Shown here piece after piece: positions 478 to 7,738 of a stretch of DNA of 7,738 bases. Every line of letters starts with the position of its first letter. The stretch's first letter is position 1. Origin of the DNA: a virus (Duplodnaviria; Heunggongvirae; Uroviricota; Caudoviricetes). The stretch lies in the IMG/VR virus record IMGVR_UViG_2802429219_000018, one strand, 5' to 3'. Under the pieces are notes generated by a model. It did not search any database. It was not told the DNA's origin and was given only the letters and a program-made list of their open reading frames with translations. The translations under genes were made by a program, and so were the position numbers.

Positions 478-2616
478 CTATTCATCCAGTTCATCATCCA
501 TAAGTAATGCATACGCTCTTAACTGCTTACCGTTCAGATGCTTTATTCTGGGTGTTCTTGTTTGCCACCCTTTACCACTTGAAGGGCGTTTAAGCATATT
601 TGCCCCATGAAGCACACTTGCAGCATGGTTTGCATCAAATCCACTTGCCACCTCGGCTTTAAAAACAGCCGGAAGAACATAAAAAGTTATAGCATCATCA
701 AGGTTTGATTTTCCTTTATTTTTATAACCAGCAAGGTTATGAATACTCATCTGGCTCAATTCATCAAAATCAACAGGTACAAAACGACTAATGCTATTTG
801 CTGTAAGAAATGATGTTGCCTGCTCAATAATCTGCTCGTTTTCCTTATTGCCTGTCCCGAACTCAGCCACCCATACATTAAAAACATGCTGTAACGCATC
901 TCGACACGCTAATGAGTCCCATCCAGTAATATGTTCAGAAAGCAGCATTGCACATTCCATAACTGCAAAACGATCCTTTACTCTATGAACTTGCTCGCCG
1001 TAATGTTGCGGAATAAGAGAATCCCATCGCTCTAACGCTCGTTTATAAGCCTCCTTCGCTTCCTGTTGATGATCTGCAAGCCATCTGATCCACTCACGAC
1101 CCGCCGCGCCATAATTTTCTTTCCATGCTGCTTCCAGTGCCTTCGCATGTTTCTCTCCATTTTCGTATCCATGAAATTCAGTTGGTCGAGATACAGGGAT
1201 ATTCAGTAATCTAACGAGCTGTCCAGCTTTTACTTTGATTCCTGCTCCAGCGAGAAAAGTTTCAATACTTTTCTCTCCTGTACTGATAACAACCGTTTCG
1301 AAATATTTAATTTCACGGTTCCCACCATCAGGACTTCCCTGTAATTTCCCTTTTCCATTAAAAAGAGTATAAGACGACGTAAATACACTTCTGGCACTGG
1401 AAGCCTGCTCTATTTCATCAAGAGCCAATAAACAGTGATTATGTGATTCTGCTTCGTTAGTTATACCCAACGCCGTTCCATACCAGGAAAGCCGTTGTTG
1501 TTTTGGAATTCCATACAGACTTGAGGCAAAATCTTCCGCAGTTGTTTTTCCCGCTGTACTTTGCGCATACAGATGCACACCAAAGCCATCAGCACCAATA
1601 ACACCAATCAGCGGGGCTGCCAGTGACGTAGCAGCCGCCAGCATCTGAAACGGGTTTTTATATGCCAATTTTGCAACATTCTCGCGCCAGCTTTCAGTAG
1701 TTCCTTTTACGCGATAAGCCAGCCTTGAGGCACTTCCTCCGGTAAACATAACTGGGGTTTCAGGCTCACCAATAACATCACCATTTGGCATGATGTAGAT
1801 GCCACCAAACCACCCGGAACGTTGTGTAGCCGTATACTGTAACCCTTTCTGAGCTTCATTCTGTATCCAGTCAGATAGAAGCTCTCTGGCCTTATTTTGT
1901 GTAGTAATTTTTAATCCCCAGTCTTTAAGGCGTGACCATCCCTGAGGGGTTCCAATCATTCCGGCTCTAATACAATGAGTAACCATTTCCCCCCTGAATT
2001 TCCAGCGTAAAGCAATAAACATTGCGTCATTTTCTCTATCAAATCCTTCGCCTAACACTTCCAGAGGTGAGCACATCCATTGACCATGGCGGGTTATCTC
2101 TCCTGAACGTTCAATTTTTGGGGTAACCCAGTACATACCTACTGGATCCGCATTTATACGCAATTCAACGTAAGGCGCCAGTTCATCGCGTGCCTGATTA
2201 CTTGCAGATTGCACAATATCCGTCATCGACACTTCTCCGCTCTCTACCTGTTCACGGATCCGTTGCAAGTAGTCGCGCCAGTTCTCCGGCTCCCGGTCGG
2301 TGATGCCTTTGTATAATTTCGCATCCTGTACGCCAGCCAGCGCCAGCTTTTCAGCAATAGCGTTGATCTGAATTGGCTCCATTTCCCCCGCGATATAAAC
2401 ACGCGCAAAGCGGCGCTCATCGTCAATAATGCGGATATTCGCCAGGTCTGCCAGTTGCTTTGGCCCCAGGTAAACAGGTGGTACGTTATCGCCGTGTTTT
2501 CGTCCTTCGCTTTCAATCCAGTGTTGAGCATGGGAGTAAGCGTCCGTCCCGGCAAAAATGATTACCTCGGTGAATTTATCCTTCGGCTGATATTTTAAAT
2601 TCGGTGCGTTTTTCAC
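478..2616 (-). CDS. Replication initiator, putative primase/helicase (P-loop NTPase of the DUF927 / SF3-helicase-like type; N-terminal primase-like region not confidently assigned)
   Basis: 712-aa ORF with GTG start at 2616 preceded by GGGAGG six nt upstream. Walker A-like motif AQSTAGKTT and Walker B-like CLLALDEIEQ in the central region, in a context (HLYAQSTAGKTTAEDFASSLYG ... SWYGTALGITNE) that I recall resembling DUF927-type replication ATPases of integrative elements. Iteron array lies immediately downstream. Family assignment is from memory, not a search. Confidence 0.7.
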   Translation of the reverse strand: MKNAPNLKYQPKDKFTEVIIFAGTDAYSHAQHWIESEGRKHGDNVPPVYLGPKQLADLANIRIIDDERRFARVYIAGEMEPIQINAIAEKLALAGVQDAKLYKGITDREPENWRDYLQRIREQVESGEVSMTDIVQSASNQARDELAPYVELRINADPVGMYWVTPKIERSGEITRHGQWMCSPLEVLGEGFDRENDAMFIALRWKFRGEMVTHCIRAGMIGTPQGWSRLKDWGLKITTQNKARELLSDWIQNEAQKGLQYTATQRSGWFGGIYIMPNGDVIGEPETPVMFTGGSASRLAYRVKGTTESWRENVAKLAYKNPFQMLAAATSLAAPLIGVIGADGFGVHLYAQSTAGKTTAEDFASSLYGIPKQQRLSWYGTALGITNEAESHNHCLLALDEIEQASSARSVFTSSYTLFNGKGKLQGSPDGGNREIKYFETVVISTGEKSIETFLAGAGIKVKAGQLVRLLNIPVSRPTEFHGYENGEKHAKALEAAWKENYGAAGREWIRWLADHQQEAKEAYKRALERWDSLIPQHYGEQVHRVKDRFAVMECAMLLSEHITGWDSLACRDALQHVFNVWVAEFGTGNKENEQIIEQATSFLTANSISRFVPVDFDELSQMSIHNLAGYKNKGKSNLDDAITFYVLPAVFKAEVASGFDANHAASVLHGANMLKRPSSGKGWQTRTPRIKHLNGKQLRAYALLMDDELDE

Positions 2617-2903
2617 TTCTTACCTCCCGCAACCAACATTGCCCGGATTTTTTTAATATTCGTGGCTGCACGTCTCGCCACCGCCTGTTGTTTGTTTTCC
2701 ACCAGAATAAAATCACGCTCAAACTGACGGCGCGGCATTACGCAGTCATATTCGTAAGCCTCACGGCGGTAGGTGATATTGCCTGGCGTAACGTGACGAA
2801 TAACCACTCGTCCCCCACGTCTGGTGTCGCGGTAAATATCTCCGTGTCTGATTTCAGGCCGAGAGAGACCGCTGGCAGTAAAGCCAGAATTTTTCTTTTT
2901 CAT
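2613..2903 (-). CDS. Hypothetical small basic protein (96 aa), translationally coupled to the replication gene
   Basis: ATG at 2903 with AGGAAA about 8 nt upstream. Its TGA stop overlaps the GTG start of the replication gene (GTGA at 2616-2613). Lys/Arg-rich, protein-like composition. No family recognised. Confidence 0.55.
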   Translation of the reverse strand: MKKKNSGFTASGLSRPEIRHGDIYRDTRRGGRVVIRHVTPGNITYRREAYEYDCVMPRRQFERDFILVENKQQAVARRAATNIKKIRAMLVAGGKK

Positions 2904-2907
2904 GGTT

Positions 2908-3108
2908 TTATTTTCCTGTCAGCAGTTCCGGTTTTATTCCTGCACTAATACAGAGTTCAGAAAAGCCTTCTGCCGTACTTACAATTTCATTATTTCGCAG
3001 CCGGCATTGTGATTTCACTTTCCCTTTATCCAGGTAAACCAGTATGCGTCCGGTGAAATCCTCTGGCACATTCAGGGTAATTGTCATTGTTGCTGGCTTA
3101 TTACCCAT
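2908..3108 (-). CDS. Hypothetical protein (66 aa) carrying one copy of the FTG...ENG...ExxxEL repeat domain
   Basis: ATG at 3108 overlaps the stop of the upstream gene (ATGGGTAA, 3108-3101). A G-run lies 6 nt upstream as a likely ribosome-binding site. The sequence EDFTGRILVYLDKGKV...AEGFSELCISAG aligns with both repeats of the adjacent 122-aa protein. Confidence 0.55.
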   Translation of the reverse strand: MGNKPATMTITLNVPEDFTGRILVYLDKGKVKSQCRLRNNEIVSTAEGFSELCISAGIKPELLTGK

Positions 3109-3469
3109 GGTTCACCCCCCCCTGAATGACCTGATAACCGCAACTGGTCAGCAATTCGATAAATTCCGGCAGTGTGCCGAAACAGCAATCATCACGCAGC
3201 CGTTCGCGGGATACCTCGACGCCGTTTTCGTAGTGACTCACCATGCGTCCGGTAAAATGCAGATCATCATCGTGATGGCACGTTAACGGCTTAATCAGTC
3301 GCGCACGTTCCGCCAGTTCCAGCAATGCTTCAACGCTTCCGGCAATTGCACCATCCGGCAGGTGGTAATTACGCACTATGCGCCCGTTCTCCACATTGAC
3401 CAGCAACTGCCCGGTAAATTTCTCGTCAAACTGAATGCTGTTAAGGTCAGAAATTGACAGGTTATGCAT
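3101..3469 (-). CDS. Hypothetical protein (122 aa) with a tandem duplication of the FTG...ENG...ExxxEL domain
   Basis: ATG at 3469 with AGGAGG 7 nt upstream; the start overlaps the stop of the upstream 67-aa ORF (ATGCATAA, 3469-3462). Repeat A is EKFTGQLLVNVENGRIV...VEALLELAERA; repeat B is LHFTGRMVSHYENGVEV...LPEFIELLTSCG. Confidence 0.6.
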   Translation of the reverse strand: MHNLSISDLNSIQFDEKFTGQLLVNVENGRIVRNYHLPDGAIAGSVEALLELAERARLIKPLTCHHDDDLHFTGRMVSHYENGVEVSRERLRDDCCFGTLPEFIELLTSCGYQVIQGGVNHG

Positions 3470-3665
3470 GGTGCACCTCCTGGCGAATACGGGCAGCGAA
3501 TACCATCACGCAGCCATCAGGAGATTGCTGACGCGCTTCCTGTTCGCTGATGGCCTCGATGTGAATTACGCGCGGTTGTGCCGTACTCAGGGCGATAAAA
3601 CGCCAGATATATTTATTCAGGTTGTGCGAGTCCCGCCCTTGCGGGTGTGTGGTATGATTTCTCAT
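3462..3665 (-). CDS. Hypothetical small protein (67 aa), first gene of the replication operon
   Basis: Internal ATG at 3665 (in frame with the 3462..4457 ORF of the track) preceded by GAGG 5 nt upstream. Protein-like composition from this ATG onward, whereas the upstream part of the long ORF translates the operator repeats and the antisense of the + strand gene. Stop overlaps the next start. Confidence 0.45.
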   Translation of the reverse strand: MRNHTTHPQGRDSHNLNKYIWRFIALSTAQPRVIHIEAISEQEARQQSPDGCVMVFAARIRQEVHHA

Positions 3666-3756
3666 AGCTACCTCGATACTGTTGCTATCGTTGGTGGTTA
3701 GAAGCCCGGTTAGTGTTAGCGCACTGCCGGGTTTCGTCGTTTTTATGAATCGATCA

Positions 3757-3860
3757 TTGTGAGATACATAGTCATCACAATGTGAGATATACATTATATT
3801 GTGGTGATATACATTGCAAGTGTTTTTATATCTCACTTTTGTGTATAGTGATATACACAT
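3757..3860. promoter_or_regulatory. Operator-like repeat array in a divergent promoter region
   Basis: Direct copies of GTGA(G)ATA(TA)CA at 3759-3770, 3782-3795, 3804-3815 and 3848-3860, spaced about 22 bp apart, plus an inverted copy ATATCTCAC at 3828-3836. Inverted pair CATTGTGA (3755-3762) / TCACAATG (3774-3781). Candidate minus-strand promoter: -35 TTGCAA (3819..3814), 15-nt spacer, perfect -10 TATAAT (3798..3793). The array lies between the divergent starts at 3665 (minus) and 3880 (plus). Confidence 0.5.
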
Positions 3861-3879
3861 AACTAATTGGTGATTAACT

Positions 3880-4182
3880 ATGTCTGTATACAAAAATGCA
3901 AAATCGCAAATGACAACGATCAGGGTTCCCCACGATGTTATGGAGGGTATGGAATCCGTAAAACTGGACGGCGAAAGCAACGCCGGATTCATAGTAACCG
4001 CCATGCGTGGTGAGATCGCCCGCCGCCAGGCAGAAGGAAGAGGAGAAAATCCCCTGGTTTCTTCGCTCGATGCACTGGCGCAGGTGGAAAAAATCGGAGT
4101 CAAAGCAGCCGAGGAGATCGGGCAGCTCGTCACCGTCGCGCGTGAAGAACTCCAGCGCCGCAAGGCCAAAGAACAGGAGTAG
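3880..4182 (+). CDS. Small putative DNA-binding regulator, ribbon-helix-helix-like N-terminus (CopG/Arc/RelB-DinJ-like pattern) with a charged helical C-terminus
   Basis: ATG at 3880 with GGTGA 6 nt upstream. The N-terminal segment TTIRVPHDVMEGMESVKLDGESNAGFIVTAMRGEIARRQ fits a strand-helix-helix pattern. Composition is protein-like, whereas the overlapping minus-strand frame is Ser/Thr/Cys-rich. Only + strand gene in the window. Fold call is by eye. Confidence 0.5.
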   Translation: MSVYKNAKSQMTTIRVPHDVMEGMESVKLDGESNAGFIVTAMRGEIARRQAEGRGENPLVSSLDALAQVEKIGVKAAEEIGQLVTVAREELQRRKAKEQE

Positions 4183-4403
4183 TTGATCAGCACCGGGCAA
4201 CCAGAAAAAATCGTATCAGTCGCGCTACCAGCAAAATTTTTTGCTTTCCGGACAGCGTGGCCAACGGCATTTTGCAGCAAAATATTCTGCATTTCTGGCG
4301 TGCTGTAGTAACGGTGATCAGCGCCTTCACATTGAACGAACTTGTCGCTAAAATTCACCCATATAGCAAACATCGCGGTGCTACAGGTAATTCGTTCACA
4401 AAG

Positions 4404-4435
4404 GCGCTCCGGCAACGGGGCGCTTTCTCTTTTTG
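4404..4435 (+). terminator. Rho-independent terminator, + strand orientation
   Basis: Stem GCGCTCCG (4404-4411), GCAA tetraloop (4412-4415), stem CGGGGCGC (4416-4423): 8 bp with one G-U pair, followed by TTTCTCTTTTT (4424-4434). It lies between the convergent 3880-4182 (+) and 4450-5250 (-) genes. The reverse strand has only a weak U-tract (CUUUGUG). Confidence 0.6.
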
Positions 4436-4449
4436 TAACGGTCAGAGCG

Positions 4450-5250
4450 TTACACATGGCTGTTTTCCTCCATGCGACGGGCTAACCAACGCTGCGAAAG
4501 ACGAATTAATTCAGCTTTCCGCTGGTGGTAGTCCTGGCCTAACTCAATCAGCGTGATATTGCTCTGCTCAAGGTAAGAAAGGTGCTCAAGCTGCAATGTG
4601 CTCATGTGGTCGCGTGGTTCGCCTGTGATGTCGTTCGCCTGCGCCCACTGTTTTGCAGTCATGCCACCCAGCACGATACGCGCCAGCATGTTCGCTTCCG
4701 TGGTGTAGTGGTGCTGGAGTGTGTTTTTACCCAGTTCAGCCCGGTACGCCTCCAGCGCGGCACACATTGGCTTAAAGTAGCTGGCAACTGTGATACGGGC
4801 TTTCAGTTCCCGGCGTAACGCTGCGGAACGCACTGGCGCTACCTTGTGTAGCTCCTCCTCGCATTTGATGAAGTACTGACGAACGGCGCGGCCCTGTTCG
4901 GTGCGTTCGACCATCGCCAGTTCTTTCGCCATGTTGATAGTGCTCAGGTAGTCGTGCTCTATACGTTGGCGAGATTTTGCGCTCACCGGATTGGGGGAGG
5001 TCAAATTTTCTACGAATTCAAAATCCACGCCCTTTTTAAATCCGTACTCATCAATGCGTCCTTTAATCCAGGTTGTGAAATCACGGCCTACCCCGAGCGC
5101 CTTATGCAACGCTCTGGCGCTAACAATATTGGTTTCACGCCCGCCAATAACGCCGGAAATAACCGGGATAATTTCGCCAAAATTTTGCAGATTCTGGTTT
5201 TCAGGCCGAACGAAGCCCTGCCCCTGTACGGGCGTTTTTGGAAATTTCAT
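4450..5250 (-). CDS. Phage antirepressor-like protein, AntA/AntB (Bro-N-like) N-terminal domain
   Basis: ATG at 5250 with AGGAG 5 nt upstream. The N-terminal region ARALHKALGVGRDFTTWIKGRIDEYGFKKGVDFEF...DYLSTINMAKELAMVERTEQGRAVRQYFIKCEEEL matches the characteristic AntA-domain pattern (L-H..L.V...F..WI..RI..YGF..G.DF ... Y.LT.DMAKEL.MVER...G...R.YFI.CE) as I recall it. C-terminal half unassigned. Confidence 0.7.
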   Translation of the reverse strand: MKFPKTPVQGQGFVRPENQNLQNFGEIIPVISGVIGGRETNIVSARALHKALGVGRDFTTWIKGRIDEYGFKKGVDFEFVENLTSPNPVSAKSRQRIEHDYLSTINMAKELAMVERTEQGRAVRQYFIKCEEELHKVAPVRSAALRRELKARITVASYFKPMCAALEAYRAELGKNTLQHHYTTEANMLARIVLGGMTAKQWAQANDITGEPRDHMSTLQLEHLSYLEQSNITLIELGQDYHQRKAELIRLSQRWLARRMEENSHV

Positions 5251-5590: not shown

Positions 5591-5630
5591 TCACCGCAAT
5601 TGCGGTGAATGATACCGCAATTGCGGTATA
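5591..5630. promoter_or_regulatory. Two perfect 18-bp palindromic operator-like sites upstream of alpA
   Basis: TCACCGCAATTGCGGTGA (5591-5608) and ATACCGCAATTGCGGTAT (5612-5629), sharing the 14-bp perfect palindrome ACCGCAATTGCGGT; centres 21 bp apart. They lie between the stop of the 251-aa gene (5640) and the alpA start. No U-tract follows either site, so they are not intrinsic terminators. Confidence 0.55.
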
Positions 5631-6523: not shown

Positions 6524-7738
6524 TCACCCGCATTTTCCGAACTCACCATGCACCACATTTCCGCCATGCTCGAGCGAATCCATATAATCGGCGTACCACT
6601 GAAGCATTTCCCGCCGTCCATCCAGATATTGCGCATGGTTGTATGTGCCACGAATTGAGTTTTTATCGACGTGTGCGAGCTGCGTCTCTATCCATGCGGT
6701 GTTATAGCCCTGCTCATGCAAAATGGTGCTCATGGTGTGCCGGAATCCATGACCAGTAACCTTTCCGTTATAGCCGATGCGTTTAAATACTTGGTTTATG
6801 CTAGCCTCGCTCATTGTTTTCCTTGGATCATTACGGCCGGGAAACATAAGCGGATAATTGCCAGTTAATTCTTTAATCTGCCCAATAAGAGAAAGAGCCT
6901 GCTTAGACAAAGGCACCACATGAGGGCGACGCATTTTCATCCGTGAAGCAGGTATCTCCCAGATAGCCTTGTTGAGATCGATTTCATCCCATAATGCACC
7001 GCGCAGTTCGCCAGTTCGCAAACCAGTGATAATCAGTAGACGAGCCGCCATAACAACCAATGCACTTCCTGAGTAACTGGACAATGCCTTGAAAAAATCA
7101 GGCAATTCTTTGGCTGTGAGGAAAGGATAATGATTAGATTCATGGCCTTGCATCGCGCTAGTAAGATCTGGGGCAGGGTTATACTCTGCGCGACCAGTGA
7201 CTATTGCATAGCGGAAAACTTCCCCACACCGCTGCCTCACTTTTTTGGCTTTTTCTGTAGCACCGCGCCCCTCGATGCGTCGCAGCACATTCAGAAGTTC
7301 AAGTGGTTTGATTTCGGCGATTGGTTTTTTGCCAATGTAAGGGAACACATCTTTGTTGAAGGCTTCGAGGATGTCTGAAGCATAACCAGCAGACCATTTT
7401 TTTAATTTGCTGCTGTGCCACTCAAGGGCAATATCTTTGAAGGTGTTGTTTAACTGCGTTTCCCGGGCAATCTTTTCCTCTCGTTTCGCTTCCATCGGAT
7501 CGATACCCCCAGCGATACCCCTTTTAGCTTCTTCACGTTTTGCACGAGCATCAGCCAAGGTAACTTCAGGATACACACCTAGTGCTAACAGCTTCTCTTT
7601 ACCAGCTACACGATACTTGAAGCGCCAATATTTTCCTCCACTAGGTTTTACCAAGAGATACAGACCACCACCATCAGCCAGCTTGTAAGCCTTCTCTTTT
7701 GGCTTGGCAGTGTCTATTTGACGGGCATTGAGTTTCAC
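6524..7738 (-). CDS. int: Site-specific tyrosine integrase, P4-type (N-terminal arm-binding domain plus catalytic domain)
   Basis: The N-terminus KLNARQIDTAKPKEKAYKLADGGGLYLLVKPSGGKYWRFKYRVAGKEK is the typical P4-family integrase arm-binding region. C-terminal catalytic signature HGFRHT...LAH...RGTYNHAQY (H-x-x-R, catalytic Tyr). The ORF starts with GTG at the very last base of the window, so the true start may be at or just beyond the edge. Confidence 0.9.
   Translation of the reverse strand: MKLNARQIDTAKPKEKAYKLADGGGLYLLVKPSGGKYWRFKYRVAGKEKLLALGVYPEVTLADARAKREEAKRGIAGGIDPMEAKREEKIARETQLNNTFKDIALEWHSSKLKKWSAGYASDILEAFNKDVFPYIGKKPIAEIKPLELLNVLRRIEGRGATEKAKKVRQRCGEVFRYAIVTGRAEYNPAPDLTSAMQGHESNHYPFLTAKELPDFFKALSSYSGSALVVMAARLLIITGLRTGELRGALWDEIDLNKAIWEIPASRMKMRRPHVVPLSKQALSLIGQIKELTGNYPLMFPGRNDPRKTMSEASINQVFKRIGYNGKVTGHGFRHTMSTILHEQGYNTAWIETQLAHVDKNSIRGTYNHAQYLDGRREMLQWYADYMDSLEHGGNVVHGEFGKCG

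Follow-up and report, generated by a model that had tools for sequence, protein, structure and literature searches.

A putative ribbon-helix-helix repressor, its phased candidate operators and a predicted cis-antisense RNA at the replication operon of a Gram-negative phage satellite

Introduction

What keeps the replication operon of a phage satellite silent in Gram-negative bacteria? We addressed this question with a stretch of 7,738 nucleotides recorded as a virus of the Caudoviricetes (IMG/VR record IMGVR_UViG_2802429219_000018), hereafter called the window, and in particular with its positions 3757-4182, where the gene of a 100-residue protein lies beside an array of short repeats. Judged from its genes, the window comprises one end of a phage satellite from enterobacteria, of the kind of the Gram-negative phage-inducible chromosomal islands (PICIs) or of P4. 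It covers the integration-to-replication half of the element and stops at the origin, the late zone lying outside: integrase and AlpA genes at one end are followed by a replication module and by an origin with iterons, all in the same orientation. The order of integration, Bro and replication genes agrees with that reported for Gram-negative PICIs (PMC10111431, PMC6092414).

Satellites of this kind are common and carry virulence and defence genes between strains. The awakening of Gram-positive islands by a helper phage hinges on their master repressor, Stl. According to the founding paper on Gram-negative PICIs, a global repressor is unclear there and AlpA is the sole known activator (PMC6092414). 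A sequence-only reading of the window had proposed that the 100-residue protein and the neighbouring repeats form the master repressor switch of the element. Our results support this interpretation, every computationally testable part of which held, and they add two features to it, a predicted antisense RNA on the same operon and origin iterons at 146-447. We consider it probable that the protein is a ribbon-helix-helix (RHH) repressor that, together with the antisense RNA, keeps the replication operon of the satellite silent.

Results

Five phased sites overlap two predicted divergent promoters

The motif GTGAKATAYAY, with at most one mismatch allowed, has six matches in the window, all inside 3759-3858 (0.70 expected; none of 200 shuffled sequences reached six), and these amount to five sites once one overlapping match is discounted. 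A best-9-mer scan returned five non-overlapping copies, a count that none of 100 shuffles matched, and a repeat search placed direct copies at 3759, 3782, 3804 and 3848 and an inverted copy that pairs 3779-3791 with 3827-3839. Successive sites start 23, 22, 22 and 22 bp apart. The four direct copies and one inverted copy, at about 22-bp phasing, that had been described from the sequence are thus present, and they are found nowhere else in the window.

We name the sites O1 to O5 and give their positions relative to the start codon of the 100-residue protein. O1 (3759-3769, plus strand, GTGAGATACAT) is at -121, in the transcribed leader of the leftward operon; O2 (3782-3794, plus strand, GTGAGATATACAT) is at -98, where transcription from the leftward promoter, PL, is predicted to start; and O3 (3804-3814, plus strand, GTGATATACAT) is at -76 and fills the PL spacer between -35 and -10. 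The inverted site, O4 (3826-3836, minus strand, GTGAGATATAA), is at -52, in the spacer of PR, the promoter of the 100-residue protein, and O5 (3848-3858, plus strand, GTGATATACAC) is at -32 and overlaps the end of the PR -10 and the predicted start. Among 16 distinct sequences with the site type of the window (type A, see below), O1, O3 and O5 are constant whereas 6 of the 12 columns in the spacer between O1 and O2 vary; 1 of 13 columns varies in O2 and 3 of 11 in O4, the most degenerate site. Several sites, read from their sequences, have the form GTG-N5-CAC, and O5 is an exact pseudo-palindrome. This symmetry fits one two-fold-symmetric dimer per site, and it leaves the distinction between direct and inverted orientation to the central five bases.

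The predicted PL (3793-3820, minus strand) has a -35 CTTGCA or TTGCAA at 3820..3814 and, at 3798..3793, the perfect TATAAT already picked out by the sequence-only reading. In 14 of 19 related loci the best minus-strand promoter match combines a -35, TTGAC-N (TTGAA-A in one), at about -62 to -67 with a -10, TAnnnT, some 85 to 90 bp before the start codon, across a spacer of 17-18 bp; the window TATAAT is at the matching place, and hence coincides with the conserved position of the leftward promoter. PR has its -10, TATAGT, at 3844-3849 (plus strand), between the -53 and -31 sites, with a poor, T-rich -35; a TATAAT-like hexamer is present at -38..-30 in 16 of the 19 loci. The Shine-Dalgarno (SD) sequence GGTGA follows at 3869-3873. 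The array therefore overlaps not only the promoter of the replication operon, as had been claimed, but also that of the putative regulator.

The first gene of the leftward operon encodes an Icd-like protein of 67 residues (3462-3665, minus strand; NCBIfam NF033153, E=4.4e-19), with its start codon at 3665..3663 and an SD, GAGGT, at 3674..3670. The rest of the operon (478-3469, minus strand) consists of two phrog_340 paralogues, the gene of a DUF4222 protein and that of a 712-residue DUF927 helicase. From the Icd-like gene through to that of the helicase, neighbouring genes overlap or abut, and PL would therefore be the promoter of the early, or replication, operon. A longer open reading frame (ORF) of 331 codons on the minus strand (3462-4457) is spurious: it runs antisense through the RHH gene and across the whole array, and its last 67 codons are the real Icd-like gene.

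Site type follows the N-terminus of the protein

We gathered more than 100 related loci and examined 17 of them in detail for sites; this detailed set spans at least nine genera, among them Escherichia, Enterobacter, Xenorhabdus, Photorhabdus, Serratia, Erwinia and Phytobacter. Most of the 17 loci have repeated sites of 9-11 bp near -121, -98, -76, -53 and -31 from the start codon, the -53 site being the most degenerate one in many of them. The sequence of the sites is locus-specific, with at least nine types at the same positions, including GTGAKATAYA (type A, that of the window), GTGTGTTTCA (type B), GTGTAAG (type C), GTGTGTATTTA, GTGTGATTYA and TGGKATTCA. All copies within a locus have changed together, and their reader must therefore be locus-specific.

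Comparison of the loci indicates that the site type goes together with the first 22 or so residues of the 100-residue protein, and not with its C-terminal domain, the Icd-like gene or the replicase, which bears out the earlier suggestion that the repeats belong to the adjacent regulator. Two loci with different site types (L018 and L019) encode proteins that are identical from residue 31 on (C-terminal domain 96%, Icd-like gene 90%) and only 53% identical over residues 1-30. Conversely, L002 and L019, like L012 and L014, have site type and N-terminus in common, with C-terminal domains at 55% and 31% identity, respectively, and Icd-like genes at about 30%. One locus (L001) has sites identical to those of the window together with a RepA-type helicase in place of DUF927 and a different N-terminus of the Icd-like protein. 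Among 80 IMG/VR loci whose proteins are each at least 86% identical to the window protein across the matched residues, four N-terminal types correspond one-to-one to four site types (19, 43, 13 and 5 loci), and a recombination joint falls near residue 20-23 of the protein.

A small protein with a predicted ribbon-helix-helix domain

The gene of the 100-residue protein (3880-4182, plus strand) is, as had been noted, the sole credible plus-strand gene: every other credible gene, and every other ORF with a family match, is on the minus strand. Purifying selection acts on it, with a ratio of nonsynonymous to synonymous substitution rates (dN/dS) of 0.07-0.29 over the nine homologues with usable dS. 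The protein belongs to the YlcI/YnfO family (NCBIfam NF041551): it scores 71.2 bits where the cut-off is 30 (E=5.4e-20), its residues 8-49 aligning to model positions 1-42 of 42, and RefSeq labels its homologues alike; it also matches phrog_6522, whose function is not known. The family is small, a search of 1.84 billion proteins yielding 71 cluster representatives at E<=0.001, and it comes in two forms, one of 55-65 residues and one of about 100 residues with an extra C-terminal part. A tblastn search of the protein against 50,697 phage records gave no match, and the long form appears to be confined to satellites. The searchable literature holds no functional study of the YlcI/YnfO (DUF3950) family, nor of an RHH repressor in such satellites.

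The AlphaFold model has an extended N-terminal segment, helices at 18-27 and 34-53, and a long helix at 58-99, with a predicted local distance difference test score (pLDDT) of 81.8; the N-terminal domain modelled alone reaches 88.8. Residues 1 to about 55 are thus predicted to form an RHH domain, with an N-terminal arm, a strand at about 10-16 (QMTTIRV) and the two helices, and this strand-helix-helix of about 45 residues has the layout of the MetJ/Arc/CopG fold. Helix 58-99 is amphipathic, with hydrophobic residues recurring every 3-4 positions in the sequence. Of the earlier claim of a strand-helix-helix start, the fold stands by structure prediction, but no RHH family matched the sequence above threshold. 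The sub-threshold matches to the RHH clan were to PSK_trans_fac (E=0.021 for the window protein, 0.00098 at best, 23 of 32 members), RHH_1 (0.0029), TacA1 (0.03), CB_ParB_C (0.00027) and 3no7 (0.074). With phmmer, the window protein matched nothing among PDB sequences, and profile searches of the PDB returned no RHH protein. For a dimer that would read the DNA through its paired strands there is indirect support, in that the segment with which the site type varies, residues 1 to about 22, contains the strand.

Some further observations concern this protein and its family. Residues 46-86 (window 4015-4137; LSSLDALAQVEKIGVKAAEEI) resemble a helix-hairpin-helix motif of the Hef nuclease in a PDB-sequence profile search (E=0.0077), the one hit of note in these searches; AlphaFold shows one continuous helix there. 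In Escherichia coli K-12, YlcI (DUF3950, 64 residues; L024 6252-6446) lies in the lambdoid DLP12 prophage, divergent from the terminase small-subunit homologue nohD and near cos, a setting unlike the slot in satellites. In the Erwinia psidii locus, a region directly downstream of the RHH gene (L008 4451-4563) has sub-threshold matches to plant microRNA precursors on both strands, which suggests a long, near-perfect hairpin.

A conserved candidate RNA antisense to the start of the leftward operon

Between the start codon of the Icd-like gene and O1, all loci have a conserved element that would encode a SymR-like cis-antisense RNA of about 80 nucleotides (about 3665-3745, plus strand), complementary to the 5' untranslated region, ribosome-binding site (RBS) and start codon of the Icd-like mRNA. 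It has an anti-SD, ACCUC, at the 5' end, hairpin 1 (3674-3690), hairpin 2 (3701-3735) and then GUCGUUUUU, with GTCGTTTTT directly after hairpin 2; in another sequence type, the anti-SD is in the loop of hairpin 1. In the plus-strand alignment, the two hairpins have 18 pairs with 99% of cells paired and compensatory changes at 10 pairs. None of 500 shuffled alignments was as good, and slid controls were all far worse. Read on the plus strand, the pairs include 36 G-U cells and no A-C cell, which indicates that the RNA would come from this strand, antisense to the leader of the Icd-like mRNA. With a covariance model derived from these aligned sequences, the element is recovered in the window and in 82 of 82 further satellite loci searched, always on the plus strand and ending about 120-135 nucleotides before the start codon of the RHH gene. 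The model had no match in two lambdoid prophage regions, including that of YlcI in DLP12. One locus has a second full-length copy (L028 486-580, plus strand, 87.1 bits) about 790 nucleotides upstream of the usual one.

The RNA would be expressed from a candidate extended -10, TGgTATGAT (3650-3658, plus strand), which lies inside codons 3-6 of the Icd-like gene; a TATGMT-like hexamer is kept at this position in most related loci. Transcription from it would start at about 3665, which would place the complement of the start codon and of the SD at the 5' end of the RNA. The Rfam model of SymR (RF01809) aligns over its whole length at this position in five loci, the window (32.9 bits, E=0.0028) and four others, but with 28.9-38.7 bits it does not reach the gathering score of 61 in any of them. 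The RNA resembles SymR in the way it would work, but it cannot be filed as a member of this family. The Rfam models of P4-type immunity RNAs, C4 and isrK, had no match at E<=1 on either strand of the window and eight other loci.

The rest of the satellite end

The remaining genes of the window are on the minus strand. A tyrosine integrase gene (int, 6524-7738) is followed by the int-alpA RNA (RF02996, 6412-6480, minus strand; Rfam 49.8 bits against a gathering score of 35.8), which lies between the integrase gene and that of a 251-residue coiled-coil protein; there are also an AlpA gene (PF05930) and an AntA/Bro-type gene (4450-5250). Residues 171-255 of the AntA/Bro-type protein match the PADLOC candidate defence family PDC-S22 (E=3e-10), and its gene is missing from the equivalent slot in several related loci. 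The 14-bp palindrome ACCGCAATTGCGGT has two perfect copies (5593-5606 and 5614-5627), 21 bp apart and about 70-100 nucleotides upstream of the likely alpA start (an internal ATG opening MSQSLIRMPE). The pair may be an operator of the alpA promoter; among 104 loci it was present in one other, L104. Within the leftward operon, the phrog_340 genes (2908-3108 and 3101-3469, minus strand) are adjacent and overlap, and the longer one matches phrog_340 twice, which looks like a tandem duplication.

The related loci include one with capsid genes of the capsid-forming PICI type (L016) and one in which a P4-type derepression gene adjoins a Toprim-domain primase-like gene (L023). In 1378 of 5426 complete E. 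coli genomes, there is a match to some part of the 1.1-kb region surrounding the RHH gene.

Discussion

The sites overlap the conserved leftward promoter and the promoter of the protein itself, which makes an autoregulated repressor of the early operon the most likely role of the protein. We infer the following mechanism. RHH dimers would insert a two-stranded beta-ribbon (residues about 10-16, with an invariant R15) into the major groove of the five 11-bp sites. The spacing of two helical turns puts all sites on one face of the DNA, where binding may be cooperative. With O3 in the PL spacer, O2 on the start point and O1 in the leader, occupancy should block transcription of the Icd-like and replication genes, and O4 and O5, which bracket the PR -10, should give negative autoregulation; both divergent promoters would be repressed, PL more tightly. 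As for the long C-terminal helix, it probably either connects the dimers of adjacent sites or offers a surface for inactivation of the repressor, by which route the satellite might be induced. A constitutive antisense RNA would act as a second lock, pairing with the RBS and start codon of the Icd-like gene and silencing transcripts that escape repression. At one locus, an Icd-like protein is probably the lethal effector when a phage accessory protein triggers it (bioRxiv 10.1101/2023.04.06.535777). A lethal Icd-like protein would fit an operon that needs tight shut-off, in a comparison made through the Icd-like protein alone.

Several points weigh against an autoregulated RHH repressor. By sequence, the protein matches RHH Pfam families and solved RHH proteins at best below threshold, and a Foldseek structure search gave no match. 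PL in the window has a weak -35 and poor spacing (either TTGCAA, 15 bp from the -10, or CTTGCA, 16 bp from it) and was omitted by a simple consensus promoter scan. Part of the co-variation between sites and protein could be plain linkage, because the sites adjoin the N-terminal codons. The proteins of types A and B are distinguished by six residues only (positions 2-5, M11L and I14V), yet 3 of 10 positions in their sites are not the same, nor is the site orientation; either specificity is set by very few residues or a shared GTGxGxTxCA core is read. Short relatives of 61-62 residues that lack the C-terminal helix have the same 22-bp layout of sites, for which this helix is therefore not required. 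Finally, according to published work it is AlpA, and not loss of a repressor, that switches Gram-negative PICIs on (PMC6092414).

This last point could also mean that the protein binds the sites as a Cro-like regulator, fine-tuning the operon or controlling only itself, with silencing left mainly to the antisense RNA and to a lack of transcription driven by AlpA. The activator documented in Gram-negative PICIs is AlpA, with no repressor described (PMC6092414); the antisense RNA is conserved as well as the protein is (82 of 82 other satellite loci); and immunity in P4 works via RNA rather than protein (PMC10111431). Yet in almost every locus two sites lie in the spacer and on the start of the conserved leftward promoter, a geometry that is normally repressive, and we regard such a lesser role of the protein as unlikely. 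It seems more improbable still that the repeats are bound by a protein of the helper phage, of the host, or by AlpA or the Icd-like protein, while the RHH protein targets other DNA, for instance that of the helper phage. PHROGs does label Icd-like families 'transcriptional repressor', and K-12 YlcI, in a lambdoid prophage beside a terminase gene, indicates that members of the family occur in phages of the helper type. However, the site type is independent of the type of the Icd-like protein and of the replicase, and corresponds one-to-one to the N-terminus of the RHH protein in 80 loci, and a host factor would not account for nine site types at fixed positions.

Tandem repeats beside a small RHH protein might instead be an iteron origin of replication, or a partition centromere bound by a protein like omega or ParG. 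The origin seems to be elsewhere: GAGACAAC occurs in nine exact copies (0.14 expected), of both orientations, that flank an AT-rich stretch at 146-447, right after the DUF927 helicase gene. This region is the likely replication origin of the satellite, and iterons flanking an AT-rich stretch after the helicase gene are the layout reported for PICI origins (PMC6092414). Moreover, L001 has an identical array with a different replicase, hence the array does not qualify as an iteron origin, and the window has no gene for a ParA or ParM ATPase; we give an origin or centromere at the array very little credence. The protein could also be a type II antitoxin that autoregulates a toxin-antitoxin operon, an alternative kept by the sequence-only reading, which had also seen no toxin-like ORF after the gene. 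Indeed, no plus-strand ORF downstream of the RHH gene matches Pfam or PADLOC, the next real gene converges on it, and the adjacent, co-transcribed toxin of such systems is missing. The gene tables of 11 related loci have no conserved toxin-like partner downstream, and in 19 loci from at least nine genera the RHH gene lies between the antisense-RNA element and the alpA/Bro genes. The antitoxin alternative is thus without support and very improbable.

An autoregulated RHH repressor acting with the antisense RNA may be part of a broader picture, which we propose tentatively and consider rather doubtful as a whole. The antisense RNA, the five operators and the RHH gene would together be the immunity switch so far missing in Gram-negative PICIs and P4-like satellites. 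In it, the operators and the first 22 or so residues of the protein would be swapped as a unit, giving at least nine mutually blind 'heteroimmune' groups; the conserved C-terminal helix would be the handle by which a protein of a helper phage, or a Bro/Ant protein of the island, lifts repression; and the K-12 SymR would be a domesticated relative of the satellite RNA. A candidate with mapped putative operators, natural swaps of specificity and a partner antisense RNA makes the repressor question directly testable. If the repressor reading is true, it gives the YlcI/YnfO (DUF3950) family its first function, helps to explain how a potentially lethal Icd-like gene is silenced, and offers engineering a collection of small, orthogonal repressor/operator pairs.

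The immI region of phage P22 encodes the Mnt and Arc repressors and the sar antisense RNA, and by analogy it is the closest known architecture. There too, a small RHH repressor is divergent from the operon it controls, with operators over back-to-back promoters; Mnt, too, continues beyond its RHH domain into a C-terminal helical domain for oligomerisation; and sar is a short cis-antisense RNA over the RBS of a gene in the controlled operon. In hhalign comparisons with approximate sequences of Mnt and Arc, the strand region aligned with non-significant probabilities of 1% and 8%. Each repressor of P22 has a single operator, where we find five sites at 22-bp phasing, and the operon controlled there is that of an antirepressor in a phage, whereas here Icd-like and replication genes of a satellite would be controlled. 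The heptads bound by the Omega repressor abut, with a period of 7 bp. The locus differs from that of Omega of pSM19035 (PDB 1irq, 2bnw) in its 11-bp sites 22 bp apart, without a partition role or a ParA partner.

Inactivation by a helper protein has been demonstrated for Stl, and is conjectured here. Stl repressors are larger helix-turn-helix proteins, unrelated to the RHH protein. The likeness to Stl and Rpr of Gram-positive PICIs, the Staphylococcus aureus pathogenicity islands (SaPIs), is in the proposed role, that of a divergent repressor silencing the replication operon until a helper phage acts (PMC6092414). The immI region of P1 (c4 RNA, icd, ant) is similar in that an Icd-family gene heads an operon and its translation is blocked by a small RNA pairing with the RBS. 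The control of icd translation at the RBS by the P1 RNA is a precedent for RNA control of an icd gene. RNA-based immunity is also reported in P4-type satellites (PMC10111431). Unlike the RNAs of P1 and P4, which are processed pieces of a leader, the one described here would be a true cis-antisense RNA from the opposite strand. In this it is similar to SymR of E. coli (RF01809), an RNA of about 77 nucleotides with two hairpins, opposite the 5' end of its target and over the RBS and start codon; the target here is the Icd-like gene and not symE, and the score is far under 61. What sets the present locus apart is the combination, in Gram-negative satellites, of five 11-bp sites two turns apart, a putative N-terminal reading head exchanged together with its operators, and a cis-antisense RNA.

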